Positions 19,564 to 61,276 of a DNA stretch of 64,000 bases are shown here, in pieces. The translations under genes were made by a program, and so were the position numbers. The DNA comes from a virus (Duplodnaviria; Caudoviricetes), in IMG/VR virus record IMGVR_UViG_3300028591_000127, positions 45,072 through 109,071 of that record. One strand, 5' to 3'. Below the pieces are notes generated by a model. The model was not told the DNA's origin and ran no database searches. It was given only the letters and a program-made list of their open reading frames with translations. How positions within the stretch are numbered: the first letter of the stretch is position 1; each line of letters starts with the position of its first letter.

Positions 19564-19731
19564 TTAAAGTCTCTTTTTGCTACCCCTCTTTACAACTAAT
19601 TTGCCATTAGCTCCCATCTTAGCATCAGCAACATACATACCCTCAGAATCTTGACCTACTTTCTTATACTGATATTCGTCGGTAGGGTCTTCCTCTGAAA
19701 AATAACGTGGTCTCGAAATTCTTATCTTCAT
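19564..19731 (-). CDS. Small leader-bearing protein, 55 aa (below the ORF-track cutoff)
   Basis: Hand translation MKIRISRPRYFSEEDPTDEY...KRL*; fills the gap exactly. Confidence 0.7.
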   Translation of the reverse strand: MKIRISRPRYFSEEDPTDEYQYKKVGQDSEGMYVADAKMGANGKLVVKRGSKKRL

Positions 19732-19734
19732 ATT

Positions 19735-20040
19735 CTAAATATAATTAGTCCAAGCCCACAAAGTTCTATATCCAAGATAGTAGGGATTATTTTCGTAACC
19801 CCTTGCTTCTATCTCAAAGGAAAGTTTATTATAGGCTTCAAAAGGATCTTGAAACATCCAAAACTTATAGATGTATTCTAGTACATACCAAATATACCAA
19901 CCAACTACAAGCAATTCTATTTGTTGTCTCCAGTGTATCTCCCCATGTCTAATCGTATGTTCTGCAATTTCCTTACCTCCAGTAAAGACAAAAGGACCTA
20001 CTATAATCTGAGGAAAAAACTCATTTTCAATTCTTATCAT
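19735..20040 (-). CDS. Conserved phage protein with a degenerate zincin-like motif
   Basis: RHGEIH..QQ.E...SFEIEA pattern. Confidence 0.55.
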   Translation of the reverse strand: MIRIENEFFPQIIVGPFVFTGGKEIAEHTIRHGEIHWRQQIELLVVGWYIWYVLEYIYKFWMFQDPFEAYNKLSFEIEARGYENNPYYLGYRTLWAWTNYI

Positions 20041-20452
20041 AATCGTTACTGCAAAGAGAGAAGAGGTAACGATACTTATAGCAGTTGTTAATGAAAGTTT
20101 CTGTCTCGCTTGTTAGGCCTTTGAACTCCGTGCCAGGGGGGATATCTTCATAAAAATCTTTAGTTTCTTTAATAGCATCCTCAATAAAACTTATAGCATC
20201 CGTGGCATTATTAGCGTAGAAAGGTACTTCTCCTGGCTTCATTTTACCAAGAATTCCCATATAACCTTCAGCAATGGTATCTTGAATATCACCCAAGATT
20301 TCATGAAACTCATCGAGGTAGACATGAATATTCTTCTTAGGAGCAGCCCAATGAAGCTCCTTACACTTAACTAAGAGGCCACTAAGAATACCCAAGAAAC
20401 GGAGAAACTTTTCTTTTTCCTCTCTCGAATAATATTTCTGAGTAAAGTTCAT
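20027..20452 (-). CDS. Ferritin/Dps-like four-helix protein (DUF5856-like) with leader
   Basis: LHW...IHVYLDEF...D.IAEGYMG...YRYL pattern; N-terminus MNFTQKYYS. Confidence 0.7.
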   Translation of the reverse strand: MNFTQKYYSREEKEKFLRFLGILSGLLVKCKELHWAAPKKNIHVYLDEFHEILGDIQDTIAEGYMGILGKMKPGEVPFYANNATDAISFIEDAIKETKDFYEDIPPGTEFKGLTSETETFINNCYKYRYLFSLCSNDYDKN

Positions 20453-20470
20453 AACTTACTTTGTATAAGA

Positions 20471-20504
20471 TCTGAGGACTAAGGAATAAACCCTAATCCT
20501 CAGA
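20471..20504. terminator. Hairpin after the tail tube gene
   Basis: tctgaggactaagg ... ccctaatcctcaga. Confidence 0.5.
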
Positions 20505-20519
20505 AGAAGTTTATTATAA

Positions 20520-21119
20520 TTATGTGAGATTATCAAAAGTTCTGCTGTAGTGCTCAAACTTCATGCTCAGAACAACATCAGCACGATCGGTCTCAGACTC
20601 AGTAGCACCGTTCTCATCAATCTGTGCGTCGGTGATTACGCAGTTGAAGAATTCCAAAGATCTAACTGTAATACGAGAAGAGTTGGTCAGAACCAATTTA
20701 ACATTAGCTACCAAGTCATCCTTACGGAAGCTATATCTCGTATCACGATCAGCAATCTTCTGTCTCCAGTCATCCAACCAATAAGTAATAGCTTGGTCTT
20801 CACGATCTACAAACTGAAGGCTAAGAGTACCGTTGGTATTCTGACTAGTTTGCTGGTAGATATCCCAACCACCTCTCATACGCTTGGTAATACCGTTCGA
20901 AGAGGTGTCAATACCTACATTAACAGCATTCAGACGACCATTGAGGATTTCGTCACCCGGATAATAAACAATTTTGGGAGCCTGCGTAAAAGACAGCTTC
21001 CACATATCGCCACGAAGGAACTCACGGTTATTATCTTTATAGGTCTTTTCCCAGTCAATAAAGTTAATACCACTAAGAGCCTCACCACCTGGACGTACAA
21101 GTTCAGCAACTGTTGCCAT
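20520..21119 (-). CDS. Tail tube protein
   Basis: 199 aa; GTLSLQFVDREDQAITYWLDDWRQKI and terminal LSMKFEHY fit gp19-like tubes; follows a sheath-like gene. Confidence 0.7.
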   Translation of the reverse strand: MATVAELVRPGGEALSGINFIDWEKTYKDNNREFLRGDMWKLSFTQAPKIVYYPGDEILNGRLNAVNVGIDTSSNGITKRMRGGWDIYQQTSQNTNGTLSLQFVDREDQAITYWLDDWRQKIADRDTRYSFRKDDLVANVKLVLTNSSRITVRSLEFFNCVITDAQIDENGATESETDRADVVLSMKFEHYSRTFDNLT

Positions 21120-28373: not shown

Positions 28374-29972
28374 TTAGTCGTTTGTTAAGAAAGTACAGAA
28401 CCCTTGATTCTTAATGATACTTTTCACTAGCTTATAATATTGCTGGAAAGTAAGAGGCCCTGATAACTTCATTACATTAATTCCTCTTTCGTAGTTAGTA
28501 TTGGTTCTTATAAATTTAGAAATCAATCTAACTTCGTCGTCAATATCGTACTGGCAATAATCTAAACTTCTGGGAATATAGATTCTAACATTAGTAGGAT
28601 CTGCTGTAATGCTAATTACATCCTTCGGAATTTTACTACTAATCTCATAATCTTCCTCCCCATCTCGGTCTAGCTTATCGACAATCATATCTATCATATT
28701 ATTGTTTGAAAATGTTGAATTTCTTAAGGCAGGTTTATCATAGAGATTTGGCTTCAAACCAAGATCCATAAATCTTTTTAGGATCTCATCGAAAGCATTA
28801 ACATTCTTTAAGGGGTAAGTATAGACAATAACCTCACCAGTATCACTTCGGTTGATTTCATCTGAGTACTTTCCATACCATCCCTTATCAATCTTAGTAG
28901 CCTCTTTCTTTGTGGAGGTTACAATAAATAAACCAGAGTTCATAGAGAAATTAACCGGATTCTTATCAGAACCAACAGTGAAGTGGAAGGATTCGACATA
29001 ACGGTTCTTACTTAATGCAGCCTCAAGAAATCTATTACTATACTCAGACTTGGCCATACCAGGAGCAGCAAGAGACTCACGCTCCCTATTAGTCAACTCA
29101 TTAATACCTTGAAGAATAGAATCGATCATAATAGCGGGGAGTGCAGAAGGTCCTCTACCAACAAGACGAATGACCTTAGCTCCGCTAGTACCCAACATCT
29201 TAATTAAATCATACTTACTGAAAGCCGATACAGAAAACTCTTTCTCCTCTTCCTCAGTAACTTCATCCATCTTATTTGTTGCCTCAAGAATTCTTCCCTC
29301 AATAGAAGCGAAGTGGTCTAAGAGATTAATAGGTGTATTAAGAACCTCACTAAGCTCTACAATAAACGAACAAATAACCTGGGTGTTAGTGAATGTTATA
29401 TTAACGGCATAAGAATTTAGCTTGAGATTAACTGCTCTCGCTGTATATTCCATACCATAATACTTCTTACAATAATAATCTAGAGTCTTAGAGGTTTTAT
29501 CTAATTCCTCTCGTGTCATTCCAAAAGTATATAGTGTTAGTTGACCTCTATGAACGGCAACAGTAACTTTATACTTCGTTACTTCTCTGTCATTAGTGGA
29601 GAATTTTTCATCAAACTTAGCCCTATGTTTAAGAGAATCTCCAATAATCACACCCCCCAGGTTATACATGCTAAACTGTCTTCTAATACCTCTGTCTATG
29701 TCTTGGAATTTAGCCGATGACATAGGCTTGTGAATATAGTTCAAGAATAATTTAGTAGCAATACCTGTTAAAATGCCAGCACCTGCACCCTTAAAAGCAC
29801 CCTCAATTATAGAGGAATCTTTCATATAGTGGCCAGCTACTGCACCAATTAAGGATCCTGCAACAGTGGTTTTTGATACTGTCTCAAGTGTTCCTGGAAG
29901 GCTAACTACGTCCTTTGGGCCTGTATAATGTCCCTCAGGAATAGTAAAATCTTTTCTTTTAAATTTAATCAT
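28374..29972 (-). CDS. Leader-bearing multi-domain glycine-zipper protein
   Basis: MIKFKRKDFT leader, GxxxG helices, internal KEFS and STFS motifs. Confidence 0.7.
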   Translation of the reverse strand: MIKFKRKDFTIPEGHYTGPKDVVSLPGTLETVSKTTVAGSLIGAVAGHYMKDSSIIEGAFKGAGAGILTGIATKLFLNYIHKPMSSAKFQDIDRGIRRQFSMYNLGGVIIGDSLKHRAKFDEKFSTNDREVTKYKVTVAVHRGQLTLYTFGMTREELDKTSKTLDYYCKKYYGMEYTARAVNLKLNSYAVNITFTNTQVICSFIVELSEVLNTPINLLDHFASIEGRILEATNKMDEVTEEEEKEFSVSAFSKYDLIKMLGTSGAKVIRLVGRGPSALPAIMIDSILQGINELTNRERESLAAPGMAKSEYSNRFLEAALSKNRYVESFHFTVGSDKNPVNFSMNSGLFIVTSTKKEATKIDKGWYGKYSDEINRSDTGEVIVYTYPLKNVNAFDEILKRFMDLGLKPNLYDKPALRNSTFSNNNMIDMIVDKLDRDGEEDYEISSKIPKDVISITADPTNVRIYIPRSLDYCQYDIDDEVRLISKFIRTNTNYERGINVMKLSGPLTFQQYYKLVKSIIKNQGFCTFLTND

Positions 29973-30799
29973 ATTGTCGCAGGGATAAATCCAGTTGATG
30001 TCATTAAGGGACTTTGAGTCATATTCTGAAGGCCTTTCTTAATTGATCTTTGTCTTATATCTCTACTAAACCCAGAACCAGCATACATCTCCCCGGCTTT
30101 CTTAGTAGCACTTTGATAAGGTCTTCTAACAAGCTTATTTAAGAGGCTAGCTGTTTCAGCAGGTCTTTGTAAATACATCTCCGCAGCAATACCCGCCTTA
30201 CCAACCATCAATTCTGGGTGTTGAAGAACAAAGAACGGATGAAAACTAGCAGCTTGGGCAACTCCAGATACTGGGTGTTGCGCTACGTAATGGATAACAT
30301 TATCAGCTACTTCACCTGTATTTTCATAAGCCATTCTAGCCCCCTCTTTACCTTTCTGTACAGCCTCTTCAGCTACTTTTCTTGATTTAGCTCTCGGAAC
30401 TCTAACCACTCTCCTATTGGCGGTTGTTGGAACTCCTGCTAAGATCTCAGCCTGGTTTCTTATTCCTTGGCCCACATTTTGAACAACCTCACTAGCTCTC
30501 GATCCAGTAATTAGGTGATGGCCTTCCTCTATAGCTTTGGTGACCGGATTACGCACAATATCTGAGGTTACTTCCCTAATTGTCCTAGAAGGAATTCTTT
30601 GAGGTCTAAAAGACCTTTGAGCAATAGGATTAGTAGGATGACCAAGTGTTGAGAGAATAGAATCACCAACTTTTAAACCAGCTTGATTAACTTGGGTCAT
30701 TACCTGGTCTGCTCCACTAACTAAGCCTCTTAATGCTCCCCTTGCTTTAACTAAGGATCTTTCTTTTATTCCAAAGTCTTTTTCTTTAAATTTAACCAT
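29969..30799 (-). CDS. Leader-bearing basic protein
   Basis: Start revised to MVKFKEKDFG at 30799. Confidence 0.65.
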   Translation of the reverse strand: MVKFKEKDFGIKERSLVKARGALRGLVSGADQVMTQVNQAGLKVGDSILSTLGHPTNPIAQRSFRPQRIPSRTIREVTSDIVRNPVTKAIEEGHHLITGSRASEVVQNVGQGIRNQAEILAGVPTTANRRVVRVPRAKSRKVAEEAVQKGKEGARMAYENTGEVADNVIHYVAQHPVSGVAQAASFHPFFVLQHPELMVGKAGIAAEMYLQRPAETASLLNKLVRRPYQSATKKAGEMYAGSGFSRDIRQRSIKKGLQNMTQSPLMTSTGFIPATI

Positions 30800-34272: not shown

Positions 34273-35019
34273 TTATCCAACTTCAACAAGATAAACAGGG
34301 TAACCCTCTTTGAGGAATCCAGTGGCAATTTCCACAATTGTTCTCCTATTTTGATTTGCGTTGGAAATAGTGGATATGTTAATATCGTTATATTTGTTAG
34401 ATGCGTTGTTCGATCTGATTTGATATTTACCAGACAAGCCCTTCAAGATCCTATCAGTCAATCTTTGTAGCTTCGGATTTTTAATAGTATTCACAAGCAT
34501 ATTGAAGTCGGCACCATTTTTAGTGACAACAATACAGACAGTACATTTCATTATGTTAGCCCTCTTAGGATCTCTAGTATAGTCAAGATCTTCGACATAA
34601 CCAGCATTAGAGAGATCACTAATAACGCCTTTCATTAAGCGATTATCTGCATCAGACTGTGAAATCTTTTTATTAATATCTTTAACAGCACCAACAAGAG
34701 CACCAAGAGCAGCACCAATTATAGTACTAGTCCCAACAAAGGCCATATTTTGAAGAGCAGAAGTTTTATATGTAGTCTCTTGTTCTTCTTTCCTATCCTT
34801 TCCAGAACCTGAAATCTTTGTTCTTGTTTCGGTGTTAGCCAGATCATTATATTTTTCAATACCCTTCTTAAAGAAGGCGGGACCAGATTTGGGAACTTTC
34901 AGATTAGATGGCAGATTTAATCCACCAGCACCAAGAGTTCCCAATGTTGCACCAACAGTGGCCCCCTTTAACGCACTAGACGCAATATAACTACTAAAAC
35001 TTTTATACTTGAACTTCAT
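34273..35019 (-). CDS. Leader-bearing glycine-zipper protein
   Basis: MKFKYKSFS; GATVGATLGTLG and GAALGALVG helices. Confidence 0.7.
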   Translation of the reverse strand: MKFKYKSFSSYIASSALKGATVGATLGTLGAGGLNLPSNLKVPKSGPAFFKKGIEKYNDLANTETRTKISGSGKDRKEEQETTYKTSALQNMAFVGTSTIIGAALGALVGAVKDINKKISQSDADNRLMKGVISDLSNAGYVEDLDYTRDPKRANIMKCTVCIVVTKNGADFNMLVNTIKNPKLQRLTDRILKGLSGKYQIRSNNASNKYNDINISTISNANQNRRTIVEIATGFLKEGYPVYLVEVG

Positions 35020-35473: not shown

Positions 35474-35809
35474 TTAGTTAAAAAGCCGACTTATTAATAA
35501 TAGTCTCTTCTTTTGTTGTTTATTTTTTAGAGAATCTCTTTCAAGTTTTCTAAATTTAACTCGATCTTCAAGATCCTCTCTTCTTAATCGTTGTTCCTCG
35601 ATCAAAGAATCATTAACTTCTGCCATAGCGTCAGTTAATTTACCCATTGCGTCGAGTTGTTTCTTCTGATATTCAGTCGCAGCCTTATGTCTCTTAGAAT
35701 TAACTGCCAAATTAGTAGCACTAACACCAAGAGTAGCTAAGGAAATTGGGATAGTTGGGTGCTTCTTTAAGACGTCAGCTGCTGAGAATCGTTTAATCCG
35801 TATAATCAT
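35474..35809 (-). CDS. Leader-bearing protein (hydrophobic helix plus coiled coil)
   Basis: MIIRIKRFS leader. Confidence 0.7.
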   Translation of the reverse strand: MIIRIKRFSAADVLKKHPTIPISLATLGVSATNLAVNSKRHKAATEYQKKQLDAMGKLTDAMAEVNDSLIEEQRLRREDLEDRVKFRKLERDSLKNKQQKKRLLLISRLFN

Positions 35810-36257: not shown

Positions 36258-36259
36258 AA

Positions 36260-37264: not shown

Positions 37265-37281
37265 AGCAGTTTATTTTTATT

Positions 37282-37578: not shown

Positions 37579-37581
37579 ATC

Positions 37582-37812
37582 TCAATCCTTCATAATATCT
37601 TGAACGTTAATACCTCTACGTAATTCTGAATTCATTTCTTTCTGCTCTTTTCTTATGTCTCCTACTCGATGTAATTCTCTTTGAGCAGTTGACATTCTAC
37701 CAAGACGATCAAAATCTTCATCATACTTCCTTCCCCTTGTAAAACCAAGATTTGTAGCGGCATTAGTATTTAATGTTCCAATTCTAGAATAATTTTTTCT
37801 TAAGAGGATCAT
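37582..37812 (-). CDS. Small leader-bearing basic protein
   Basis: MILLRKNYS. Confidence 0.65.
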   Translation of the reverse strand: MILLRKNYSRIGTLNTNAATNLGFTRGRKYDEDFDRLGRMSTAQRELHRVGDIRKEQKEMNSELRRGINVQDIMKD

Positions 37813-45187: not shown

Positions 45188-46424
45188 TCTTCTCCTCCTC
45201 CATAATAGACTGTTCTAGGCCCTCTGGAAGTTCATTTGGTCCAAAAACCTCTTCCTCCATTGCCTTAGTAAATTCAATATAAGCTTCCTGAAGATTTTTT
45301 AGTCGCATCGGAGTTAAAGTGCCTCGTTTGGACATCTCCATATAAGCCAGGCGGGCCGGTTGTTGTAATTTCTGACTGGCTACACGAACAGATTTTCCAA
45401 GAGATCCTGCACCAGTCAAAGTAGCAATGGTCTTACCCGCCAGGATCTCGGGAGTAAGCACCTCGAAAATATCAAGAAGATCCGTCATAAAAAGAGACTT
45501 CATAATTTTCAAAGTCTCAGGATCAATCTTTTCTGCGCCACCTGCTTGCTTAATTGCTTGTTTGTACTCTAAAAACAGACGACGCATTCTCATTCTGGGA
45601 GAGAACTTAGCATATCTAACACGCTCTCTAATAGTAGCAACAGAATATGTTCTCTCAGTATCCTCTTCGATCTGAACTGTATCGGCCAACATAGAGTACT
45701 CTTTAGCTTTCAGGATACAGTACTTACCATCAATCTTTGAGGATCTTGCTATCTCAGGATCTACGCCTACTTCATCGACACTAGAGAAGGTCTTTACTCG
45801 AATATCTGAATCCTTAATCGAAAAAGTCTTCTCACCTCTCTTAGTATCTTCATCGTCATAGTAAACATCAGTGATTCGAGCTAAAGGACCGAATGAGGGA
45901 TTTTTTGTGAAATCAACACCCTTCAAAAGTTTAATTCTCTTGCACTCATCAATACCATTTCCATTCGATTCCCAATAAGCGAGAACAACCATAGAACAAG
46001 GCACCTGAACACCAGATTTAATTAAACCCTTCAATCTCTTTATATTCTCGGCAGCAAGACTATCAAAATCCTTCTCATCTAGAATATGAATCAAGGCACA
46101 AAGAAAAGGACCTTCTCCCGGAACATTCTCAATGTAAAACTCCTTGACGTAATGAGTATATGTGGGGACATTTTCACCAACACACAAACCCGCATCATCA
46201 ACTCCAATCTGCTTGCGAAGAAGCTCGGGTTTGCCTATAGAATCAGGAAGTGCAGTAAGACCCCTACCACGATGAGTAAGATATCCAAGACACTCCCTCG
46301 TCTCCATAGAACGCTCATATTCCTCAGAGTTAAGATAGTTTCTTACTACAGTTTCACCAATATGAGATCCATCTGCAGCAAAATGATTGGGACCTAACCC
46401 ACAACATCTTACTCTTACATCCAT
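45177..46424 (-). CDS. Prohead maturation protease (T4 gp21-like serine protease)
   Basis: LGYLTH, VPCSMV and GVDFTKNPSF correspond to the His, Ser and Asp motifs of gp21/HK97-type proteases; synteny. Confidence 0.75.
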   Translation of the reverse strand: MDVRVRCCGLGPNHFAADGSHIGETVVRNYLNSEEYERSMETRECLGYLTHRGRGLTALPDSIGKPELLRKQIGVDDAGLCVGENVPTYTHYVKEFYIENVPGEGPFLCALIHILDEKDFDSLAAENIKRLKGLIKSGVQVPCSMVVLAYWESNGNGIDECKRIKLLKGVDFTKNPSFGPLARITDVYYDDEDTKRGEKTFSIKDSDIRVKTFSSVDEVGVDPEIARSSKIDGKYCILKAKEYSMLADTVQIEEDTERTYSVATIRERVRYAKFSPRMRMRRLFLEYKQAIKQAGGAEKIDPETLKIMKSLFMTDLLDIFEVLTPEILAGKTIATLTGAGSLGKSVRVASQKLQQPARLAYMEMSKRGTLTPMRLKNLQEAYIEFTKAMEEEVFGPNELPEGLEQSIMEEEKNVK

Positions 46425-46528: not shown

Positions 46529-47017
46529 TTAATAAGAATAGCCTTCTCTATTAGTATTATTGCTAACAAAATCCTTGCGCTCACGTCTGTTTGCCTGTCT
46601 CTGAGCATACCCAAGGCGCTGATTGTAAAATTTATTATCCTTGATCTTATTACGATTGGCAAGATATGTACTACCTGCACCAATCAAACCACCAGCAGCG
46701 GCACCCAATCCTAATGCGCCTTTGCCACCACCGAGATAGCCAAGATTCTGAGCAATCTTTGCAGCACCTAAGCCGATACCGGCGCCGGCAGCAGTACCAA
46801 CACCCACCTTAGCATAGTTACCAGCATTACTGCGCTTCTTTTCAGCCAGAATATCAGAATCCTTCATCTTTTTCAGATTATCAGTATCATCCCACTTAGT
46901 ATATTGACGCAACTCCTCAAGATACTGCTCCTCAGTCAGATATTCAGAGTAAGAATACAATCTCTCCTCACCATTCTCATCAATATCAGAGAAAAATCTA
47001 TCAACTTTAATAATCAT
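46529..47017 (-). CDS. Extended-leader glycine-zipper protein
   Basis: MIIKVDRFFSDIDENGEERLYS...; two GxxxG helices. Confidence 0.75.
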   Translation of the reverse strand: MIIKVDRFFSDIDENGEERLYSYSEYLTEEQYLEELRQYTKWDDTDNLKKMKDSDILAEKKRSNAGNYAKVGVGTAAGAGIGLGAAKIAQNLGYLGGGKGALGLGAAAGGLIGAGSTYLANRNKIKDNKFYNQRLGYAQRQANRRERKDFVSNNTNREGYSY

Positions 47018-48924: not shown

Positions 48925-49362
48925 TTAATCCTCCTGAAGATTCTTAAGGGCTTTTTTATGCCGTTTTACTTTCATACCAGCCTTAGTTGCCTCTACACCA
49001 TGATAAGCTGTATTCAAACCAGTAATACCTAATCCAACAGCATTAAAACCTTTATTACTACCTTTTTTCAGTCCTCTACCAAAAGAACCAGCTAAAATAC
49101 CATTAAGGGTTGCTACAGTTCCGTGTCCTAATGCCTTCCTCTTCTCAGAGGCAATAGCATTCTCATAGGCTTTAGCAAGGTCCTCTTCTGCCTTAGAGAA
49201 ATTCTTATGGTACTCGTAAGAACTACTTTCACTCCTTACCTTACTGGTCGGAGTAGAGTCTGAATATTTATGGTTGACCTCTTTTGACACTCCACCATCG
49301 TCATAAACCTTAATAGATTCTGAATCAAAAGTCTTAGGTCTTTGTACCTTTATTTTAGCCAT
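48925..49362 (-). CDS. Leader-bearing glycine-rich protein
   Basis: MAKIKVQRPKTFD, internal KNFS, two Gly-rich helices. Confidence 0.65.
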   Translation of the reverse strand: MAKIKVQRPKTFDSESIKVYDDGGVSKEVNHKYSDSTPTSKVRSESSSYEYHKNFSKAEEDLAKAYENAIASEKRKALGHGTVATLNGILAGSFGRGLKKGSNKGFNAVGLGITGLNTAYHGVEATKAGMKVKRHKKALKNLQED

Positions 49363-51211: not shown

Positions 51212-51424
51212 TCACTTCTTGATACTATCAGACTTAGACTTACTTTTTTTTAGATCCTTATATGCCTGAATAATTCCTTTTATTAGACCCCTTTTGCGTC
51301 TAGTAGCTTTTTCTACAACGGGATGTATGTCTCCGACCTTATCCATCAGCAAGTCTGTCTCGTCAAGTAATTGATCAACAGGAACTAAGCCCTCTGAATA
51401 GTATTTTTGTCGAATTACAATCAT
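51212..51424 (-). CDS. Small leader-bearing protein
   Basis: MIVIRQKYYS. Confidence 0.7.
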   Translation of the reverse strand: MIVIRQKYYSEGLVPVDQLLDETDLLMDKVGDIHPVVEKATRRKRGLIKGIIQAYKDLKKSKSKSDSIKK

Positions 51425-51519
51425 TTTTCTTTCAGTTTTATACCAGGCGTTTCTTCAACTCCAGCACTCGATTCTACTCCTAAAGTAAATCTTCTCTCAC
51501 TAATTTCTTCTTTTTTCAT
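51421..51519 (-). CDS. Possible 32-aa peptide
   Basis: MKKEEISERRFTLGVESSAGVEETPGIKLKEK*; its stop overlaps the next ATG. Confidence 0.4.
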   Translation of the reverse strand: MKKEEISERRFTLGVESSAGVEETPGIKLKEK

Positions 51520-51523: not shown

Positions 51524-51892
51524 TTAGATTTTCATAGGGACAGGGTCAATTATCCTTGATCTAGTCTTATAGAGGCTTGTATTATTTGGTTGACCATTAT
51601 TAACCTCTAAGCTTCTCGCCTTTAATTGATTCCTCTGTTCGGTTTGTTTTTCTTCAGACTCCATTTTCATCATCTGTGTCATCTGCTTTCTTTTTGCCAT
51701 ATCCTCACGAACCCTCATTATATGTTTCTGGTTCTGAATCTGAAGCAACTGTCTTTGTAATTTAAGCTGTTGTTCCTGAAGTTCTCTAGCGGACATTGGT
51801 TCCTGAGCAGCGTCATTATTTCCAGCAGATGATTGTTGGGGAGAAGATTGCTGTGGAGTATCAGCAAATGACTTCTTTCTCAGGATTATCAT
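51524..51892 (-). CDS. Leader-bearing Gln-rich coiled-coil protein
   Basis: MIILRKKSFA. Confidence 0.7.
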   Translation of the reverse strand: MIILRKKSFADTPQQSSPQQSSAGNNDAAQEPMSARELQEQQLKLQRQLLQIQNQKHIMRVREDMAKRKQMTQMMKMESEEKQTEQRNQLKARSLEVNNGQPNNTSLYKTRSRIIDPVPMKI

Positions 51893-52195: not shown

Positions 52196-53881
52196 TTACC
52201 GATCTTCTATATTATTGAATACAGCCGGATCTATGCCTTGTTGTTCGGCCATTACTGACTGTTTAGCCTGGAGATAAGCAATATACTTTCTCTTGGTCTC
52301 ATCATTAATCATACTCTCAGTATCAGGATCAATGTCTTTGATGAGATTCTGAATATAATTAATAAAAGCTTCAGTATCTATTAAAGGTGCAGAGTTTTCA
52401 AGAATCTGCAAAGAACTAGATAAGATGTTAGTTATACCTCCCATCAAACCATTAATAGACTCACTTTGGTTAATCTGATTATTATATTCAACACTAGTCT
52501 TCTCTGATACGTGAAGCTTAATCAAAGAGGGATCAATCTTCTCTCCATATATCATTTCATAAACTGAACAGACAAGATCCTTAACTGATGTCTTAATGCC
52601 CGACATAAATCCGCTAACCCTACTATTAGCTCTCTCTGATTGTTGTAGAATCGCCCACTTTGAACCTGATGTCGAATCTAAGATTGTTGAAGGAATACCA
52701 AGAGGACTAAGGACATTGTTCTTACACATGTCCAAATTCTGCATTATCTCAAATAATTTATCTGACAATTTATCAAGAGGCAATAAGTTATTCTTATTAC
52801 CAAGAGTAGCATTATAGTCAGGAACAAATTTAGCACTCTGAGATAAGGTATTTTCAATAAAACTAACAACATCAAATTGGCTAGTTAAGAAAGACGCTAG
52901 CTCATTTGTATTATTGGCAATCTTAGTCGTTCTAGCACAAAGCTCTGTAGCAGTTTCCTTAGGAGTAGATTTATCGAATTGAAGAAGGAAAATCTGAACA
53001 CTACTTAAGTCGCGAAGGCTAATAAGAGACACAAGTAACTCTTTTATAATTAGCTCCTTAACTTTCAGAATGAGGGAGTAAAACAGAGGTTCACCCGTAC
53101 TGTAGGCTTCGGTTCTTAAAATTTTATCTAAATTATCATCCTTAAGCTTCTTACCAAATGAGGGCTGAACAGTTTTATCTTTCTTTGCTTTGTAAGTCTC
53201 ATTAAGATCGTTAACCAGGCGAAGGTTAATACTTCCAAGCACGAAAGCACTATTATGAGGAATTTCGTATATCTTTCCATCCTCACCTCTGGTCAAAAAC
53301 GAGTCCTCCGTTTCACCATCCTTATTCCTTTTCTTCTTAGTGATCACTGATATAGGATCATATAGCTCCTCAAACCTCAACTTCAAATGCCCTAACTCAT
53401 CACGAGTCTTTAAAATCATAGAAGTATATTGACCATAGAAAACTACATCCTTAACGTGGTCCCTTATATAGTCTAAGATATTAAGATCCTTAGTTAAGAC
53501 CTCATTAATCTTTTCAGTTCTTGATTCGTCCGTATTACCCTCTGGATCGAGGATCGTTACTATCTGTTGTCCAGAGTCCTCCAGAAAATTCACTATATAA
53601 TCAGCAAAAAAGTTGGTTGCTAATTTACAAACATCAATGAGCTGATATCCATGTAATTCATCGATCCTTGAGTAATATGCTGACATTAAATTGCTGGGAG
53701 AAGCATTGCCTAACAAAGGAGATTCCCTTTGAGAGCTATTCCACTTACCGCCAGAGCCAATCTGAGTAAATCCACTTCTACCGCCCCGATAAATATTACT
53801 TCTTAACGGTACTCTGGAGTTTATATTGCCGGCAAATCCAAAAATCTTCTGAAAAAATCCATTATTGTCCTCTTTCTTCAT
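52196..53881 (-). CDS. Portal protein
   Basis: 561 aa between terminase and protease; KDVVFYGQY and LSPLGIP portal-like segments. Confidence 0.7.
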   Translation of the reverse strand: MKKEDNNGFFQKIFGFAGNINSRVPLRSNIYRGGRSGFTQIGSGGKWNSSQRESPLLGNASPSNLMSAYYSRIDELHGYQLIDVCKLATNFFADYIVNFLEDSGQQIVTILDPEGNTDESRTEKINEVLTKDLNILDYIRDHVKDVVFYGQYTSMILKTRDELGHLKLRFEELYDPISVITKKKRNKDGETEDSFLTRGEDGKIYEIPHNSAFVLGSINLRLVNDLNETYKAKKDKTVQPSFGKKLKDDNLDKILRTEAYSTGEPLFYSLILKVKELIIKELLVSLISLRDLSSVQIFLLQFDKSTPKETATELCARTTKIANNTNELASFLTSQFDVVSFIENTLSQSAKFVPDYNATLGNKNNLLPLDKLSDKLFEIMQNLDMCKNNVLSPLGIPSTILDSTSGSKWAILQQSERANSRVSGFMSGIKTSVKDLVCSVYEMIYGEKIDPSLIKLHVSEKTSVEYNNQINQSESINGLMGGITNILSSSLQILENSAPLIDTEAFINYIQNLIKDIDPDTESMINDETKRKYIAYLQAKQSVMAEQQGIDPAVFNNIEDR

Positions 53882-53963: not shown

Positions 53964-54841
53964 TTAATTCTCCTTGTCCTTACTCTTTTCTATTTTGTTG
54001 GCAGCAGCTTTACCTAGTCCTCGACCTACCAGAGTCAATGAAGGATTGATCAAACTACCTGTTACGTAAGTTCCTCCTGTTTTAAGATACTGATTTCTCA
54101 TTTGGGATAATAGTTTTTTGTCAGCACCCGCCTCTTTCAGAAGTTGTAAACCCTTTTTAGACGCAGCGGCCTCACTCAGTATCATCGGTGCCGAAATAGC
54201 AGCAGCGGCAACAGTGGGTCCATATTTAGATAATTTGCTCTCCTTTTCCCCTTTACGCTCCTTTTTTACTGAGTTATAACCACTAGCAAATCCAGCAGAT
54301 AAACTTGCAAGAGATGGAGCATTCTTTCCGGGAAGAGCAATTTTCTGGTAGGTAGGATTTAAGTAAATACTGTGAGCAGCTTTACCTATTTTACTAGCAC
54401 CCTCACGACCAAAGGTGTGCCTACTGTGACCAACCTCATGAGCAAAATTCGAATTAGTATTTTTAGAAATACAATCCTTCACTCCCTCCTTTTCCAGTGC
54501 TTCAACTAAATCTCGTAACTCCAGATTCTCTGGATGTTTCAGGCTTTCCCTCTTAATCTCTTTTAATCTAATATAAGAATCAGTAAATCCAGGAACTACT
54601 TTAGTACCTCCTTTTTCTACCTCTTCTTGAAGTTTCTTATTAATTCTCTTGAGTTGATCTATTTTATCCTTTGAAATAGGCTCATCACTCATAGCGGAAT
54701 TATAGAGCCCAGTATTAGCTGCTATAGCACCCAAAGTAAGTGTACTACCTATAGCGGCTAAACGACTTCCTGGCCTGGACTGATCATTATCATTCCCCCC
54801 CCTGTACTCTTACTATAGTACTTTTGTCTTAGTATGATCAT
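53964..54841 (-). pseudogene. Leader-bearing HExxH zinc-metallopeptidase-like membrane protein, frameshifted at a G8 tract
   Basis: ATG 54841 gives MIILRQKYYSKSTGG; the body (FAHEVGH...SEAAAS) is in another frame; G9 at 54795-54802 would join them. Confidence 0.7.
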
Positions 54842-55359
54842 AGTTTAGCAAATTTTCTAATTTCAGGTATTATATAGTTACTGAGCTCCTCTATTGTTGG
54901 AACATGTTTTCCTGGAATATTTATTAAACTATTTTTCCCATATTTTCTAACAAATATAGGTTCAGTTACTGATCTTAACTTATCTTCCATCGAAATAAAT
55001 CCAAGAACATTCGTAGCTTGGTCAGGAAGATTTTCAAGTTCTTTGAATCCTAAACTATACTCTGGAAATTTAGTTTTTATACCCTCTGAAATACCAAAAC
55101 CTGGATTAATTAAAACTGTTTTCTTAGATTTTATTTTAGTAGCATATACACCTCCCATACTAAGCCCAATTACAAGATCCCAATTTACTTGTTTTAATTT
55201 CTGTAAATCTTTTAAACCTAATCTTGGATCACTATGAACTACGGGAATTTGAATATTAGGGATTTCTTTTTTAAAAAATTCGGATATTTCAAGTTTTCCT
55301 AATTCATATGCCATAAAACCATTTAAGAAACAAATTTTTTTATGCCGCAATATCTTCAT
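54838..55359 (-). CDS. Alpha/beta-hydrolase esterase (YqiA/UPF0227-like)
   Basis: FLNGF oxyanion loop, GLSMGG nucleophile elbow, LINP, Asp and GKH His; degenerate leader MKILRHKK. Confidence 0.8.
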   Translation of the reverse strand: MKILRHKKICFLNGFMAYELGKLEISEFFKKEIPNIQIPVVHSDPRLGLKDLQKLKQVNWDLVIGLSMGGVYATKIKSKKTVLINPGFGISEGIKTKFPEYSLGFKELENLPDQATNVLGFISMEDKLRSVTEPIFVRKYGKNSLINIPGKHVPTIEELSNYIIPEIRKFAKL

Positions 55360-56196: not shown

Positions 56197-56724
56197 TTAA
56201 TCGTTGCTCTTCTTACGCTTCTTATGACTCTTGACCTTATGCACGCCATAACCAGTAGCGAGACCTGTAACACCCAAGCCAGTAGTTACGCCAGCAGCGA
56301 TCTTCTTATTTCCCCTCAGCAGCTCACCAGCCTTAAGCAGATTCTTCTCAACAAGACCGGCTTCCTTACTACCAGCAGCCTTTACCGTCTTACCGGCACC
56401 CACAAGAGCTTCTAAGCTACTCTTAGCTTCTTCCTGAGCGGCTAGCCCATTAGCCTTAAGTCGCTTATTTCTAATGACCTCACCAAGCTTACCTGCTCCA
56501 TACATACCAGCTGCGCCGAGACCTGCAGTGCCTAAACCAGCACCTGCGCCCTTAGCGGCAGCAATAGCGGCAGCAAGCTTTGAGTCTTCATCTTCGTCGT
56601 CCTCATTATCACTGAACAACATTTCCAGGTAATCCTCTTCACTAATTACCTCATTTGTAGAATACAGTCTCTCCTCGCCACTCTCATCAATAGCAGAGAA
56701 ATATACATTACGTTTAACCAACAT
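56197..56724 (-). CDS. Extended-leader glycine-zipper protein
   Basis: Start revised to MLVKRNVYFS at 56724; first 47 aa identical to 57416-57973. Confidence 0.75.
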   Translation of the reverse strand: MLVKRNVYFSAIDESGEERLYSTNEVISEEDYLEMLFSDNEDDEDEDSKLAAAIAAAKGAGAGLGTAGLGAAGMYGAGKLGEVIRNKRLKANGLAAQEEAKSSLEALVGAGKTVKAAGSKEAGLVEKNLLKAGELLRGNKKIAAGVTTGLGVTGLATGYGVHKVKSHKKRKKSND

Positions 56725-56779
56725 AGTTTTCTTATTAGTTTTATTGTTTTTTTTAGTAGTAAGGGTACTAATTCCTCCC

Positions 56780-57307
56780 TTACTTATAATATTTATGCAG
56801 ATGCTTCTTATAATCTTCATCTTCTATAGATTTCAAGATATCAGAATATCTCTGCAATCCTCGACGATCAAACTTCTTACTTTTCGCGATCTCCTCTGAC
56901 TCGTTTTCACCGATTTTCTTACCAAGTTTATAACCAAGATAAGAGCTAGCACCTACACCGGCAGCCACACCTGCTGCACCAATAGCAGCCGGAACAGCCT
57001 TACCCTCGCTTGCCTTAATAGCTGCATCAGCGACCCAGGGAGATGCTAGTAAAGCCCCAAGTCCCGCACCAGTCAGAGCACCACTTCTCTTGTGCGCTTT
57101 TTTAAGGGGCTCATAATCATCATTATCAATCGCCTTAATCGTAGCTCTATTTAAAGAGCTAGAACCACCAGCTAAAATTCTATCTGTACCGACTTTATCA
57201 TCGAAGTAAGAAATGGTATCATCATCCAATTTCTTTCTACGCTTGCTCTTCTTACTGAAAAGCTTCGTCTGATCCTCCGAATACTCTTTATGTCTCAATA
57301 TAATCAT
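56780..57307 (-). CDS. Leader-bearing glycine-zipper protein
   Basis: MIILRHKEYSEDQTKLFS. Confidence 0.75.
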   Translation of the reverse strand: MIILRHKEYSEDQTKLFSKKSKRRKKLDDDTISYFDDKVGTDRILAGGSSSLNRATIKAIDNDDYEPLKKAHKRSGALTGAGLGALLASPWVADAAIKASEGKAVPAAIGAAGVAAGVGASSYLGYKLGKKIGENESEEIAKSKKFDRRGLQRYSDILKSIEDEDYKKHLHKYYK

Positions 57308-57415: not shown

Positions 57416-57973
57416 TCAATCCTCCTTCTTCTTCTCCTTCTTCTTTGCTAATTTACCAGCAGCATAAAGTCCTGCGCCGACTGCAGTTACAGCGAGGCCT
57501 CCCTTTGCATTTTTGACGGCACTGTCCTTAACTACTTTCGAGGCGCGTCTAGCATAAGTATCTATATCCTGTAATGCAGCTTTCTTGTGAATCTTTTTAA
57601 GAGCATCAAGATAATCCTGAGCCTTCTTAATATCTTTATCCGTAAGTTTTCTTCCTAACTTATTTTTCGCAATCACTTTCAATGCACCAGGTAGTTTCGA
57701 AATAGCTTCCTTATATGGCCGAACTGACGCTTTTGTACCGGGAACCAAAACAGCCCCAGCCGTACCTGCACCACCTGCAACCATGGCTCCTTTACCAACC
57801 TTTTCTGCTAAATTCTTATCGGACTTCTTTTCATCTTCGTCTTCGTCGTCCTCATTATCACTGAACAACATTTCCAGGTAATCCTCTTCACTAATTACCT
57901 CATTTGTAGAATACAGTCTCTCCTCGCCACTCTCATCAATAGCAGAGAAATATACATTACGTTTAACCAACAT
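57416..57973 (-). CDS. Extended-leader glycine-zipper protein
   Basis: MLVKRNVYFSAIDESGEERLYS...MLFS; two GxxxG helices; Lys-rich tail. Confidence 0.75.
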   Translation of the reverse strand: MLVKRNVYFSAIDESGEERLYSTNEVISEEDYLEMLFSDNEDDEDEDEKKSDKNLAEKVGKGAMVAGGAGTAGAVLVPGTKASVRPYKEAISKLPGALKVIAKNKLGRKLTDKDIKKAQDYLDALKKIHKKAALQDIDTYARRASKVVKDSAVKNAKGGLAVTAVGAGLYAAGKLAKKKEKKKED

Positions 57974-58025
57974 AGTTTTCTTATTAGTTTTATTGTTTTA
58001 AGTAATAAGGGTATTAATTTCTTCC

Positions 58026-58190: not shown

Positions 58191-58193
58191 ATT

Positions 58194-59456
58194 CTACATT
58201 TTAGTCTTAGTTATACAGTTTATACGTTGATGGAGTTTATAGCAGATATTATAAATTAGATTAGCTAGAGCATTCACAGAAGGAATAGTTAATTGAACTA
58301 TATAGCCACCTTTAACCTTTTCAGAGATGTAAGTAGCCTTTCTGTTATCTTTTACTACATACTCAAACTCTTTACTTAGTTCGTCAAGTGTTTTATTCCC
58401 TATGGAGTCGTAAATTATAAAAATTGCTACTCCATCTCTAACTGATAGAACTATATTGAACCCCTTAGGATCTTGGTCTAATCCTATATATCGACTAACT
58501 AGGTTTTTGCCTCTAACATCAAGCCCTTTGTTTCTGGAATCTGATATAATATCTTCCAAATAATCAAGAACTTGATTCATATTAACCTCTTTAGCTACAC
58601 TCATTCTGTGATCTGCGCCAACTGCCTTAAACATATTTCCCAGGGCACCCATTAGGGAACCTAGTGATAGTCCAACAACAGTAGAAATACCTAGAGTTTT
58701 TAAATTAAGAGTAGAGACACCAACACTTGCGCCTACAGCACCGCCAGCAACAGCCCCGAGACCTGCGCCGGTTTTTGCTTTATTAATAAGCTCTCTTCTT
58801 AAAGAACCTTCTTTATCAGGATGACCGGATTGAATACTGAAAATTTTCTCTCGCCTTTTCTTTTTAGTTGCTTTTGCAGCACCATTAAGGGCTAGCGCAG
58901 AAACTCCAGTCGCTAGGGCGATCCCGCCAGCAATTTTACCTTTCTTGAGGTTTTTAGAGGCAGTGTTCAGAGCTTTTGTTGATTTAACAGAATCTACTAT
59001 TCTCTTATTAGTTTGAATATTTTTCTTCTCTCTGGTAATTGCCCCCTTTATTCGGTTGTAGTTCTCAGTACTTATTGTTTTGTCTCTATTACTTAAGACA
59101 AATTCCTCAATATTCTTAAGCTTTTCCTTAGACCCGGCAATCTCCTGCTTGGCTGCTTCTTCAACACCCTCCAGCACATTTCTTCTGGTTTCTAAATCTT
59201 TTAAAGATTTCTTAGATCCTCGAAGAACCTTACCACCAACTTTTTTCAGGGCCTTGAGTTTACCAAGTTTTGATTTCTCGGCACTAATTCTATTGTATAC
59301 TTCTTTTCCAGCCTGACCAGTTTTATAAGCCCCATAACCAAGAGCCCCTAAAGAAATAATGCCCTCTGCTTTTGCTGCACCGTCTAAAAGATTTTCCCTG
59401 TCGTATCTAGCCTCATCAATTTTCGATGCGAAGGCCTTGTTTCTTAATATAATCAT
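58194..59456 (-). CDS. Leader-bearing two-module glycine-zipper protein
   Basis: Start revised to MIILRNKAFA at 59456; internal KIFS starts a module resembling the N-terminal domain of 28374-29972. Confidence 0.75.
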   Translation of the reverse strand: MIILRNKAFASKIDEARYDRENLLDGAAKAEGIISLGALGYGAYKTGQAGKEVYNRISAEKSKLGKLKALKKVGGKVLRGSKKSLKDLETRRNVLEGVEEAAKQEIAGSKEKLKNIEEFVLSNRDKTISTENYNRIKGAITREKKNIQTNKRIVDSVKSTKALNTASKNLKKGKIAGGIALATGVSALALNGAAKATKKKRREKIFSIQSGHPDKEGSLRRELINKAKTGAGLGAVAGGAVGASVGVSTLNLKTLGISTVVGLSLGSLMGALGNMFKAVGADHRMSVAKEVNMNQVLDYLEDIISDSRNKGLDVRGKNLVSRYIGLDQDPKGFNIVLSVRDGVAIFIIYDSIGNKTLDELSKEFEYVVKDNRKATYISEKVKGGYIVQLTIPSVNALANLIYNICYKLHQRINCITKTKM

Positions 59457-59485
59457 ATTAGTGTAGAATAATAACCGCGTTTGAC

Positions 59486-59540
59486 AGTTCCCATAGTTGC
59501 TTTGGTGCATAGAGACATATTTCATCTCAACTATGGGATT
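59486..59540. repeat. Structured intergenic repeat, type B, copy 2
   Basis: Matches 57333-57387. Confidence 0.85.
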
Positions 59541-59546
59541 TATATT

Positions 59547-60438
59547 TTATAATTTCTTAAGTTCAGCTTTCCAATCCTTTGCTAGCTGAATTAGGGCAGG
59601 ATTTTCGATATCCTCTAAATCCCGATCAACCCACTCAATCAAGATTTCCCCTAATGAGGTGAACGTTCCTTCTATTGGAAATCCTCCTTGAGGTCCCCAA
59701 CCAAACGGCTCACTTTTAGCCTGTGGATACCAACAAACTACAGTATCATCAGCTCGTTCAGGGTCGGTTATTAGACCAATTTCGTGTAAAGATGTATCTC
59801 CTCTACGATTCAGCTGAAGATCTTCCTGTATCCACATTTCTGGGTAACGAGCTTGGTCAATGGGTCTAACTATATTGGTTAAAGAAGCCCAACAGTCCGA
59901 ATTATCTTTCAGGAATTTAACTAGGTGAGATAAGATAAATTTCTTTTGAAGTTCTATATAATTCCAAAGGTCTTTCGGAAATTGTATGCCATACTTCTTT
60001 TCTAACTTCTTGTAATCCTGGATAGATCCAGTATATAAATCAGTAAGATACTTTTGAGGATCTTTAAGTGCTAGGTTCTTCAGTTTCTCTGCTGCTTCAT
60101 ATTGTTTCTTGAGGAATTGATTTCGTTTATCAATACTCTTCTTAGAAGTTGTATTCCAAGCAGTTTTTCCTCCAAGATAAGCAGATAAAACCGCCCCTCC
60201 TAAAGCACCATACTTGGCAGATCCAAAAAATTGCACCAACCATTGAACCACCTAAGGCCCCTAATATAGCACCTAGGGCACCAAAAGCACTGGCATCTTT
60301 TAGTCTACGTCCAACAGGAACATAAGCTACAGGTTTAAATGAATAAGTTTTATCTCTTAGTATGATCAATTTGTATTCATCCTCTAACTCTCTACGACTT
60401 TTCTTATTAGAGAACTCCTTATTTCTTAGAATTATCAT
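59547..60438 (-). pseudogene. Leader-bearing glycine-zipper protein with SMI1/KNR4(SUKH)-like C-domain, frameshifted at a T6 tract
   Basis: ORFs 60142-60438 and 59547-60251 join as ...VGAIF-GSAKYGALGG if the A6 run at 60225-60230 is A5; the C-part has YKKLEKKYGIQFPKDLWNYI. Confidence 0.65.
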
Positions 60439-60937
60439 ATCTTCTTTCTAATCTAGCTCTTCTCATCTCGTCCGCTATTCTTTGTTGGGCCTGAAGTTGA
60501 AGAGCTTGAATTGCTCTATCCTTCTCATCCTGACGAATTCTACGAACTTCAGCACGATCACTAGGAGAGCTAGATACATAAAGGCCTCTCTTGTCAGCCT
60601 CTCTCTTTATTGCTTCCTCAATATCTCTATCCTTCTTTCTATTTGCGGACCCTCTGACAGCATAGTATCCCCCTGCAGCGCCTAAACCAGCGCCTATAGC
60701 AGTACCAGCCAAAGATTTCTTCGTAGCAACATTACCAACCATTGCACCTAATCCTGCACCAGCAAGACCCGCACCAAATTTAGTATTAAAAGCCGTGGCA
60801 TCCGCTACCTGTTTGTCTCTCTCCAAGTCACCTTGAAGTTCTTGAAGATATTGGGCGTCTAGCGGAGTTAACTTTTTCTTAATAGCCTTCCGCTTCTTCT
60901 TCTTTTCGCTATATAGTACGTTTTTTAGTATAATCAT
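60419..60937 (-). CDS. Leader-bearing glycine-zipper protein
   Basis: MIILKNVLYS; GAGLAGAGLGAMVG and GTAIGAGLGAAGG helices. Confidence 0.75.
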   Translation of the reverse strand: MIILKNVLYSEKKKKRKAIKKKLTPLDAQYLQELQGDLERDKQVADATAFNTKFGAGLAGAGLGAMVGNVATKKSLAGTAIGAGLGAAGGYYAVRGSANRKKDRDIEEAIKREADKRGLYVSSSPSDRAEVRRIRQDEKDRAIQALQLQAQQRIADEMRRARLERRYDNSKK

Positions 60938-60940
60938 AAC

Positions 60941-61276
60941 TTAGTGTTTATTTGCCTGATATGCCTTAAGTGCAGACTCAGCATTGGCCCTTGAGGTATA
61001 CTTAGGGGTCCAAAACTTTCTTTTCTTAATAGCTACTATTCTCCAATTCCCATCGTGATCCTTCTGAATAACACCCTCTACCTTAGCTTTTTCTAGAATA
61101 TCGGGGGGAACATTCTCTCTATCATCTATCTTGCTAAATTTCTTTGATCTAAGAAGTTTAACTGGAAATTCTCCATTCTTTATAGATTTATTGATAATAG
61201 CAAGAACCTCACTCGGTAACTCTTTGGAAACTCCTTTACCAAGATTTATAAATTGTTTATTTCTTAATATAATCAT
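60941..61276 (-). CDS. Leader-bearing small basic protein
   Basis: MIILRNKQFI and internal KLLRSKKFS. Confidence 0.7.
   Translation of the reverse strand: MIILRNKQFINLGKGVSKELPSEVLAIINKSIKNGEFPVKLLRSKKFSKIDDRENVPPDILEKAKVEGVIQKDHDGNWRIVAIKKRKFWTPKYTSRANAESALKAYQANKH

Follow-up and report, generated by a model that had tools for sequence, protein, structure and literature searches.

About 30 small proteins encoded by this phage share a nine-residue N-terminal leader, with the consensus M-I-x-[LF]-R-x-K-x-[FY]|S. The end of this leader is the predicted cut site of the phage's own prohead protease, and therefore the tag probably loads the proteins into the head and is then clipped off. On sequence grounds, we consider it likely that this is an address-and-cut propeptide of the T4 style, carried by a jumbo myovirus from a gut/rumen clade. 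The window analysed here is the whole stretch of 64,000 nucleotides, part of a 109-kb contig. Genes are named by the position of their start codon (table 1).

The leader is confined to the head module

All 26 start codons listed in the original prediction yield, when translated from the minus strand, the N-termini given there. The proposed ending holds for most of them: 21 of the 26 fit [KR]-x-[FY]-[SAGT] exactly within the first 15 residues, whereas 61276, 60937, 57973, 56724 and 37264 deviate. An in-frame ATG also lies upstream of the leaders of 59456, 56724, 40380 and 30799, and in each case the start that matches the family is the leader ATG. Two genes had been overlooked, one encoding 32 residues (51421..51519) and one with a leader-like start (48925..49362). 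Of the 51 genes from position 19564 onwards, 24 carry the leader, compared with 1 among the 35 genes elsewhere on the contig (Fisher p = 5e-6). We took the dividing line of this comparison from the original prediction itself. By chance, 2.6 leaders are expected from shuffled N-termini (maximum 8 in 2000) and 1.9 from internal windows. As had been claimed, the terminase, sheath, tube, lysozyme-bearing tape measure and tail/baseplate genes all lack the leader, and no leader site was found in genes 52188, 47809 and 39835 of the cluster. Its codons do vary synonymously, the final Ser using both codon boxes (TCN and AGY), and the sequences support selection at the level of the peptide. A scan for promoters and terminators between 46 and 62 kb gave counts close to background (55 vs 45 ± 5.5). 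We rejected a class III (type IV prepilin) signal peptide, which needs a hydrophobic helix that begins right at the Phe behind a basic leader; here, F/Y is followed by small residues and then mainly by charged or polar ones.

Related genomes show the same confinement, in a comparison that covers three near-complete genomes. In a complete relative of 353 kb, 20 of 22 matches to the leader profile fall within a 41-kb head module, and the two outliers are a 38-codon antisense ORF and a match with E = 7.7. Two further genomes have 7 of 8 and 6 of 6 matches within their head modules, and the leader is on none of 44 non-structural genes of the relatives. Grouping 325 motif-bearing proteins from 28 loci gave about 10 conserved families and about 100 singletons, although low complexity may over-split families and a few members are chance ORFs. 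The most frequent P1 position in these proteins is residue 9 (148 of 325). Many gut phage records of 360-401 kb, with the same leaders and sites, encode a capsid protein 73-74% identical to ours. Their size and habitat make it likely that these are the Jug genomes of PMC12880540, a paper on jumbo gut phages of 360-402 kb with about 90% of genes unannotated; no leader or cleavage motif is mentioned in those of its passages that a term search retrieves. Our phage is a more distant relative (GC 37.7% vs 29.9% in one such record). The Alpha and Beta groups of Jug share about 95% in the capsid-protein comparison; the genome of our phage is a fragment.

Table 1. Head-module features discussed in the text.
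Feature	Position	Strand	Evidence
Terminase large subunit, no leader	61276..63165	-	tblastn to annotated TerL, E down to 3e-44
Basic protein with leader, 111 aa, first site imperfect, second at 45-48, conserved small family	60941..61276	-	
Glycine-zipper basic protein with leader, 172 aa, degenerate site	60419..60937	-	
Leader gene, two tandem sites, split by a frame change at a T6 run (near 60228) into annotated pieces of 98 and 96 aa	59547..60438	-	
Basic glycine-zipper protein with leader, 420 aa, C-terminal domain akin to 35019	58194..59456	-	weak PHROG virion-protein match
Leader protein, three-site propeptide, 185 aa	57416..57973	-	
First copy of the 160-bp leader cassette, 134 bp of coding sequence preceded by 26 bp upstream	57840..57999	-	100% identity with second copy
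Second copy of the 160-bp leader cassette	56591..56750	-	100% identity with first copy
Glycine-zipper protein with leader, 175 aa, two sites	56780..57307	-	
Glycine-zipper protein with leader, three-site propeptide, 175 aa	56197..56724	-	
Basic protein with leader, 185 aa	55555..56112	-	
UPF0227 esterase-like protein, degenerate leader (front half only)	54838..55359	-	
Leader gene, split by a frame change at a G run (near 54800) into annotated pieces of 27 and 242 aa	53964..54841	-	
Portal protein, site at 12-15, conserved in relatives	52196..53881	-	identity from Atlas
Gln-rich protein with leader, 122 aa, conserved family	51524..51892	-	
32-aa protein, site 9-12, counterparts in many relatives	51421..51519	-	
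Leader protein, 70 aa	51212..51424	-	
Leader protein, three-site propeptide, 144 aa	50670..51104	-	
LRAT (permuted NlpC/P60) domain between glycine zippers, leader, 405 aa	49446..50663	-	Pfam PF04970, E = 4.5e-18
Leader-like start and internal site	48925..49362	-	
Leader protein, three-site propeptide, paralogue of 36257	46529..47017	-	
Prohead protease, T4 gp21 fold in residues 1-175, four sites in linker after catalytic domain	45177..46424	-	
Zn-ribbon core protein, 264 aa, 6 sites	44393..45187	-	
Acidic scaffold, 806 aa, net charge -159, 15 sites, mostly triplets between repeats	41955..44375	-	position and make-up
Major capsid protein, sites 36-39 and 57-60	40487..41929	-	
Basic protein with leader, 179 aa	39841..40380	-	
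Conserved protein, leader front half kept, cut site absent	38362..38745	-	24/24 distinct orthologue starts
Conserved alpha/beta protein with leader	37812..38375	-	leader unstructured in model
Five leader genes (37812, 37578, 37264, 36257, 35809), order kept across clade	35474..37812	-	
Glycine-zipper protein with leader, 248 aa, conserved family	34273..35019	-	
Two leader genes (30799, 276 aa; 29972, 532 aa) amid untagged genes adjoining sheath	28374..30799	-	
Dps/ferritin-like protein with leader	20027..20452	-	DUF5856, PHROG 858
55-aa leader protein	19564..19731	-	

The leader ends in a predicted prohead-protease site

The leader had been read as a putative capsid-targeting and maturation signal, and the sequences support a maturation site in its last four residues. 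The motif recurs in five head proteins for which that account did not mention it: portal, scaffold, core protein, protease and capsid protein. Its strict form occurs 12 times in the scaffold against 0.21 expected (p = 1.5e-17), 5 times in the core protein (0.17 expected) and 4 times in the protease (0.24 expected), while tail proteins are at background level. The relatives that we examined conserve the sites in capsid and portal, and the capsid sites predict a propeptide of about 59 residues. Pairwise BLAST against the outgroups identified neither the neck proteins nor the portal. This set of scaffold, core, protease, capsid and portal matches the substrate classes of gp21 and of SPN3US gp245 (PMC5694885).

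The protease has His51, Ser144 and Asp171 invariant in the alignment. Its model matches T4 gp21 (Z 10.1, rmsd 3.0, 129 aligned residues) and also viral prohead proteases; PDB sequence searches with the protease and with the capsid protein gave no matches. The position Ser+2, two residues beyond the catalytic Ser, is Arg/Lys in T4 and in four outgroups. It is Val in 55, Ala in 3 and Ser in 2 of the query and its 59 homologues, and never basic. The tails of these same proteases carry 1-6 KxF sites each. In two cultured outgroups, the protease-scaffold tail is instead rich in [VIL]-x-E-[SA] (17 vs 1.2 expected in IME392, 9 vs 1.8 in Ab1) and has no KxF site; in phiLo and Carin-5 the enrichment of the Glu motif is not significant. 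It is not enriched in our scaffold either (7 vs 3.6 expected, p = 0.08). Because the same motif fills the scaffold, core, protease linker and the N-termini of capsid and portal proteins, and Ser+2 is Val, we regard [KR]-x-[FY]-[SAGT] as very probably the recognition site of the phage's own prohead protease. The cut quite likely falls directly after F/Y, a position suggested by the P3-x-P1|small pattern of related proteases. Ser+2 may govern aromatic vs Glu specificity through the S1 pocket, by a correlation within one clade. Cleavage after Phe/Tyr by a gp21-family protease is not described in the literature that we searched.

The front half of the leader resembles a separate address

Upstream of P3, leaders differ from scaffold sites in net charge (+1.3 vs -2.1, p = 4e-7) and in hydrophobic residues (3.3 vs 1.1, p = 8e-6). 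The hydrophobic-basic front half is absent from the scaffold sites, and the 38745 family has it without a cut site. Targeting and processing are separable in T4 IPIII, at residues 4 and 7 and at residues 8 and 10, respectively (PMC9026906), and a sequence signature of such separable positions appears to be present here. The original interpretation is partly supported: the front half behaves like an address of its own, in a layout that parallels the T4 signal.

Tagged proteins and the copying of leaders

Most of the predicted cargo is made up of basic glycine-zipper proteins, but an LRAT enzyme and a protein resembling Dps are among it too. The leader is thus also found on acidic (Dps-like) and enzymatic (LRAT) bodies. 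The bodies had been described as mostly unrelated, which needs qualifying: 57973, 56724, 51104 and 47017 have a common three-site propeptide of about 40 residues, 47017 and 36257 are paralogues, 59456 and 35019 have a common domain, and many are basic glycine-zipper proteins. In the 38375 family, extra sites sit in a variable loop in relatives. In genes 60438 and 54841, a change of frame at a homopolymer run truncates the product; a search for further records of the 54841 site found none. When 106 tagged proteins were scanned against Pfam and PHROG, hardly any names emerged beyond glycine zippers, LRAT and Dps-like, a fold search with the 38375 protein gave no clear match (best Z 5.0), and an Atlas search with 29972 was uninformative. 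Across the Pfam, PHROG, fold and Atlas searches, the cargo proteins have no characterised virion homologue.

One event of leader-cassette copying onto another gene is directly visible. An identical 160-bp cassette stands on two different genes, 57973 and 56724, whose bodies diverge directly after it. In other pairs sharing a leader, DNA identity stops where the leader stops.

Alternative explanations

The leader could be a cut site without an address, i.e. a removable propeptide on proteins that their bodies bring into the prohead, with a front half that aids protease binding or was copied by gene duplication. Such a reading would fit the conserved leader end, which is identical to the scaffold site, the copying of cassettes at the DNA level, and the mostly net basic bodies, which could bind the acidic scaffold unaided. 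We nevertheless think it unlikely: scaffold sites, which must be cut, lack the front half, the front half persists in the 38745 family, where no cut site is present, and the front half is also on acidic and enzymatic bodies. The motif might also be an uncut docking strand that joins core, scaffold, capsid, portal and accessory proteins during assembly, and it is indeed modelled as a beta-strand in the protease linker. We give this little credence: the sites lie in scaffold linkers, the protease linker and the capsid propeptide, all places that prohead proteases cut, two outgroups have a T4-type Glu motif in the same region, and a small residue, as follows F/Y here, is typically found at P1' (Ser is preferred in SPN3US, PMC10052503).

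Processing of the leaders by a host protease of the Prp/L27 type has a precedent in short N-terminal leaders cut after Phe on non-homologous phage proteins (PMC5744158). It is highly improbable here: Prp has one N-terminal site, against 15 internal scaffold sites and the protease linker, no Prp (PF04327) was found in the complete 353-kb relative or in this contig, and the phage has an intact gp21-type protease of its own. At P3, the L27 motif has Gln, not Lys, and Bacteroidota are not known to have the L27 extension. It is scarcely credible that the leader is an artefact, produced by AT-rich translation starts or by a DNA element that is repeated. AT-rich 5' codons do yield starts rich in Ile, Lys and Asn, and one exact 160-bp duplication exists, but the leader is confined to the head module, is lost on shuffling N-termini, uses both Ser codon boxes, and is the point where DNA identity ends in other pairs. 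Confinement, enrichment and codon variation largely refute such an origin.

Comparison with known systems

The closest logic to an address-and-cut leader is the capsid-targeting sequence (CTS) of T4, carried by IPI, IPII, IPIII and Alt and cleaved off by the prohead protease gp21 (Mullaney and Black 1996; PMC9026906). Both are N-terminal peptides of about ten residues on divergent, mostly basic proteins; both have a cut site, predicted here, common to scaffold, core and capsid protein, and a gp21-fold protease with catalytic His, Ser and Asp. Targeting and cutting positions are separable in T4 and, to judge by a sequence signature, may be so here. The differences are a predicted cut after Phe/Tyr with Lys/Arg at P3 rather than after Glu, a basic-hydrophobic leader, a larger set of tagged proteins (about 30, against four in T4), glycine-zipper cargo, and a tagged portal, whereas T4 gp20 is not processed (PMC5694885). 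The leader would thus work like the CTS without being a member of it by sequence. Like phiKZ, 201phi2-1 and SPN3US (gp175, gp245), this is a jumbo myovirus with many inner-head proteins that are processed there and predicted to be processed here (PMC5694885, PMC10052503), and with diverged paralogues that have identical N-termini. Judged by motif position, it would also share with these phages a processed portal, protease self-trimming and several sites per propeptide. Their sites are (S/A)-x-E and their propeptides mostly exceed 100 residues, in contrast to the short leader and aromatic site here. Prp, which processes ribosomal L27 and cuts F|A in the capsid and scaffold proteins of staphylococcal phage 80alpha (PMC5744158), offers another short Phe-ended N-terminal leader on non-homologous proteins, but it is a host protease with one N-terminal site and two phage substrates, unlike a phage serine protease with dozens of internal sites. 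The term 'novel system' in the original prediction is too strong, because T4 already follows this logic and 19 head proteins are cleaved in phiKZ, as in 201phi2-1 (PMC10052503). The new elements are an aromatic cut site, as predicted here, the number of proteins that a short tag reaches, and the visible copying of a leader cassette.

A proposed mechanism and its meaning

We propose that the hydrophobic-basic front half binds the strongly acidic scaffold/core, and that tagged proteins would therefore be enclosed while the shell forms; their entry into the prohead is probable. The gp21-type serine protease would then cut after Phe/Tyr of [KR]-x-[FY]|[SAGT], shredding the scaffold and the 264-aa core protein and trimming its own C-terminal domain. 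The capsid protein would lose about 59 residues, the portal 14, and the cargo its leader. By analogy, freed cargo would remain in the head and probably leave with the DNA on ejection; that most tagged proteins are ejected is close to an even call, leaning slightly towards no. The approximately 10 clade-conserved tagged families may be core, neck or structural parts, degraded or retained, rather than payload. Basic glycine-zipper helices would suit proteins that associate with DNA inside the head and insert into membranes during entry. New cargo could be gained when a leader cassette recombines onto another gene. A broader scheme is possible, though doubtful: a modular loading system, run by an abundant family of gut jumbo phages, in which a nine-residue tag, spread by recombination of leader cassettes, brings into the head dozens of fast-changing, membrane-active glycine-zipper proteins and lipid enzymes, which an aromatic-specific protease unmasks for ejection into the host envelope.

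The concept is already known from T4. Here, it makes the processed head proteome of an uncultured clade predictable from sequence alone, in a clade that takes in abundant human-gut jumbo phages (PMC12880540). It also predicts a gp21-family protease cutting after Phe/Tyr, linked to one active-site position, for which a test needs no phage culture. The clade supplies natural variants (a tag without a cut site, triple-site propeptides and genome-specific tags) that bear on what a capsid-targeting peptide binds. If the broader scheme were true, one could read from sequence the entire set of ejected proteins, whose purpose would be DNA passage, superinfection exclusion or counter-defence.

The leader is confined to the head module

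All 26 gene starts listed in the original prediction read as it gave them, and 21 of these contain an exact [KR]-x-[FY]-[SAGT] motif. Among the 51 head-region genes, 24 carry the motif within their first 15 residues, and among the remaining 35 genes one does (p = 5e-6); with shuffled starts the count is 2.6. The head-region boundary was taken from the finding itself. Because the boundary was set in this way, we tested the relatives as well. The leader profile had 22 matches in a complete 353-kb relative, of which 20 were inside the 41-kb head module and one of those outside was a short antisense ORF. In two further near-complete genomes, 7 of 8 and 6 of 6 matches fell in the head module. The leader was found in 0 of 44 non-structural genes of the relatives. 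Hence, an equal frequency in non-structural genes, which the original prediction had named as evidence against it, was not observed. The leader codons also vary synonymously, as claimed, and use both Ser boxes.

These genes lie in the window, which forms the final 64 kb of a viral contig 109,071 bp long, where almost all genes are on the minus strand and a myovirus virion module is encoded (terminase, portal, protease, scaffold, capsid protein, sheath, tube and lysozyme-bearing tape measure). The contig is a genome fragment (CheckV 29%) and the same proteins are also found on a 312-kb contig. Since the complete genome is larger than this fragment, the inverted repeat formed by the contig ends may be an assembly break or the flank of an invertible segment. 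Capsid proteins encoded at 79 IMG/VR loci share 60-78% identity with the one encoded here, and many of these loci are on 350-401-kb contigs. They resemble the published Jug phages of the gut and the relatives of those phages in ruminants (PMC12880540). A P-type ATPase has been reported for Jug phages; we observed one in relative G003, and found none in G004 or G005. The long antisense ORFs across the capsid and scaffold genes are probably a codon-bias shadow.

The motif recurs in the predicted substrates of the prohead protease

The 806-aa acidic scaffold contains 15 motif sites (12 strict, 0.21 expected), the 264-aa Zn-ribbon protein six, the protease four directly after its catalytic domain, the capsid protein two in its first 60 residues and the portal one at its N-terminus. 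The relatives have 11-20 scaffold sites each, and both the capsid and the portal sites are conserved. Tail proteins show no excess over background. The known substrates of gp21-type proteases are the scaffold, core, capsid propeptide and protease tail, plus the portal in giant phages (PMC5694885).

The protease model resembles the T4 gp21 fold (Z 10.1), and His51, Ser144 and Asp171 are invariant. In two cultured outgroups the T4-type [VIL]-x-E-[SA] motif abounds in the matching region, from which the KxF site is absent; two other outgroups show no significant enrichment of the Glu motif. The second residue after the catalytic Ser is Arg or Lys in T4 and four outgroups. In the query protease this position is occupied by Val146, according to the profile alignment, and it is basic in none of 60 aligned sequences (the query and 59 homologues). 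We infer that this basic-to-hydrophobic swap near the active site would fit a shift of P1 from Glu to Phe/Tyr. This broad subfamily comprises 233 clusters at 50% identity. Its distant members adjoin motif-bearing genes, one of which encodes a Dps-like protein containing seven sites; the window also encodes a Dps-like protein with the motif, which may thus be an old component of the head. In P0036 and about 40 other matches, the protease's helical C-terminal domain is found without the catalytic domain; P0036 has it duplicated, with a KEFS site ahead of each copy. In loci L010 and L128 the protease is divided into separate genes.

The front half of the leader as a putative address

The leader could be no more than a cut site, or it could also carry an address. 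Ahead of P3, the 225 leader sites have Met, Ile, x, Leu/Phe and Arg, whereas the 305 scaffold sites have mostly Asp/Glu; within this genome the two differ significantly in charge and hydrophobicity upstream of P3. The 38745 family retains M-x-x-F-[RK]-x-K but not the subsequent [FY]-S. In the 37264 family the leader is retained and F/Y is followed by a bulky residue. The front half therefore appears to be under its own selection, apart from the cut site. In T4 IPIII, targeting depends on residues 4 and 7, and cutting on residues 8 and 10 (PMC9026906). The scaffold has a net charge of -159, which would suggest it as the candidate partner of the basic leader. In the model of the 38375 protein, residues 1-10 lack secondary structure and precede a folded domain, and its relatives have extra sites within a variable loop, as expected of accessible protease substrates.

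Cargo and evolution of the tagged set

The tagged bodies are mostly net basic, about half have repeated GxxxG helices, and few have named domains (LRAT, Dps-like, an esterase-like protein whose tag is degenerate, and glycine zippers). This make-up would suit DNA-associated head proteins acting on the host envelope upon ejection. Cutting of the 334-aa conserved protein could yield several helical peptides. Two tagged genes shift frame at homopolymer runs; each looks like one gene, with either an assembly error or slipped-strand phase variation.

Genes 57973 and 56724 have exactly 160 bp in common, made up of 26 bp upstream and 134 bp of coding sequence that runs through the third site; beyond this stretch they diverge. 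The pair formed by 51104 and 47017 is older. Some relatives (L112, L120, L007, L102) repeat leader variants of their own across several unrelated variable genes, suggesting concerted copying inside each genome. The 325 motif-bearing proteins from 28 loci sort into roughly ten conserved families plus some 100 singletons, a number in which over-splitting is likely. Together, these patterns indicate two tiers in the tagged set: a stable one, which may be core or structural, and a fast-changing one recruited by leader copying.

Features of the window and of related genomes
Feature	Location	Observation
LRAT-type domain	window 49446-50663	His box and NCEHF motif intact; flanked by glycine zippers; second cut site of the protein downstream of the domain
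Dps-like DUF5856 protein	window 20027-20452; distant relative L126 5880-7298	bears the motif; seven sites in L126
334-aa conserved protein	window 36260-37264	internal sites evenly spaced; bulky residue after F in the first
Tagged gene with frame shift	window 54841-53964	G run at ~54800
Tagged gene with frame shift	window 60438-59547	T6 run at ~60228
136-aa acidic gene without tag	window 35037-35447	amid tagged genes just before the sheath
Antisense ORFs (261, 281, 227 aa)	window 41222-44183, + strand	most GC-rich part of the window
Homing endonuclease	window 8012-9328	amid baseplate-region genes (PHROG 7168, E=3e-21)
Inverted repeat of contig ends	window ~63810-63997; G000 (other end) 4-195	127 bp perfect, ~190 bp near-perfect
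P-type ATPase	G003 26752-27363	
Small proteins with Glu-type site	L080 21709-21996; L080 17075-17341; L105 15396-15710	cultured phages IME392, Ab1

Relation to known systems

Judged from its sequence, the leader is a real signal. That part of the proposed novel system stands, but the kind of system is already known from the capsid-targeting sequence (CTS) of T4 and its protease gp21, which the present one resembles in how it would work. It also has some features in common with phiKZ and SPN3US, in whose type of head maturation up to 19 head proteins are cleaved (PMC10052503). By sequence it belongs to neither of them, since the test for the Glu site was negative. Prp-type processing between F and A (PMC5744158) was the sole aromatic precedent found and was rejected as a poor fit, with no Prp protease detected in this contig or in the complete 353-kb relative. 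A published description of the [KR]-x-[FY]-[SAGT] head motif was not found in the literature searched, which included few subscription papers. Small proteins of the cultured phages IME392 and Ab1 have a short N-terminal peptide with a Glu-type site at its end, and these short leaders are testable counterparts in culturable hosts.
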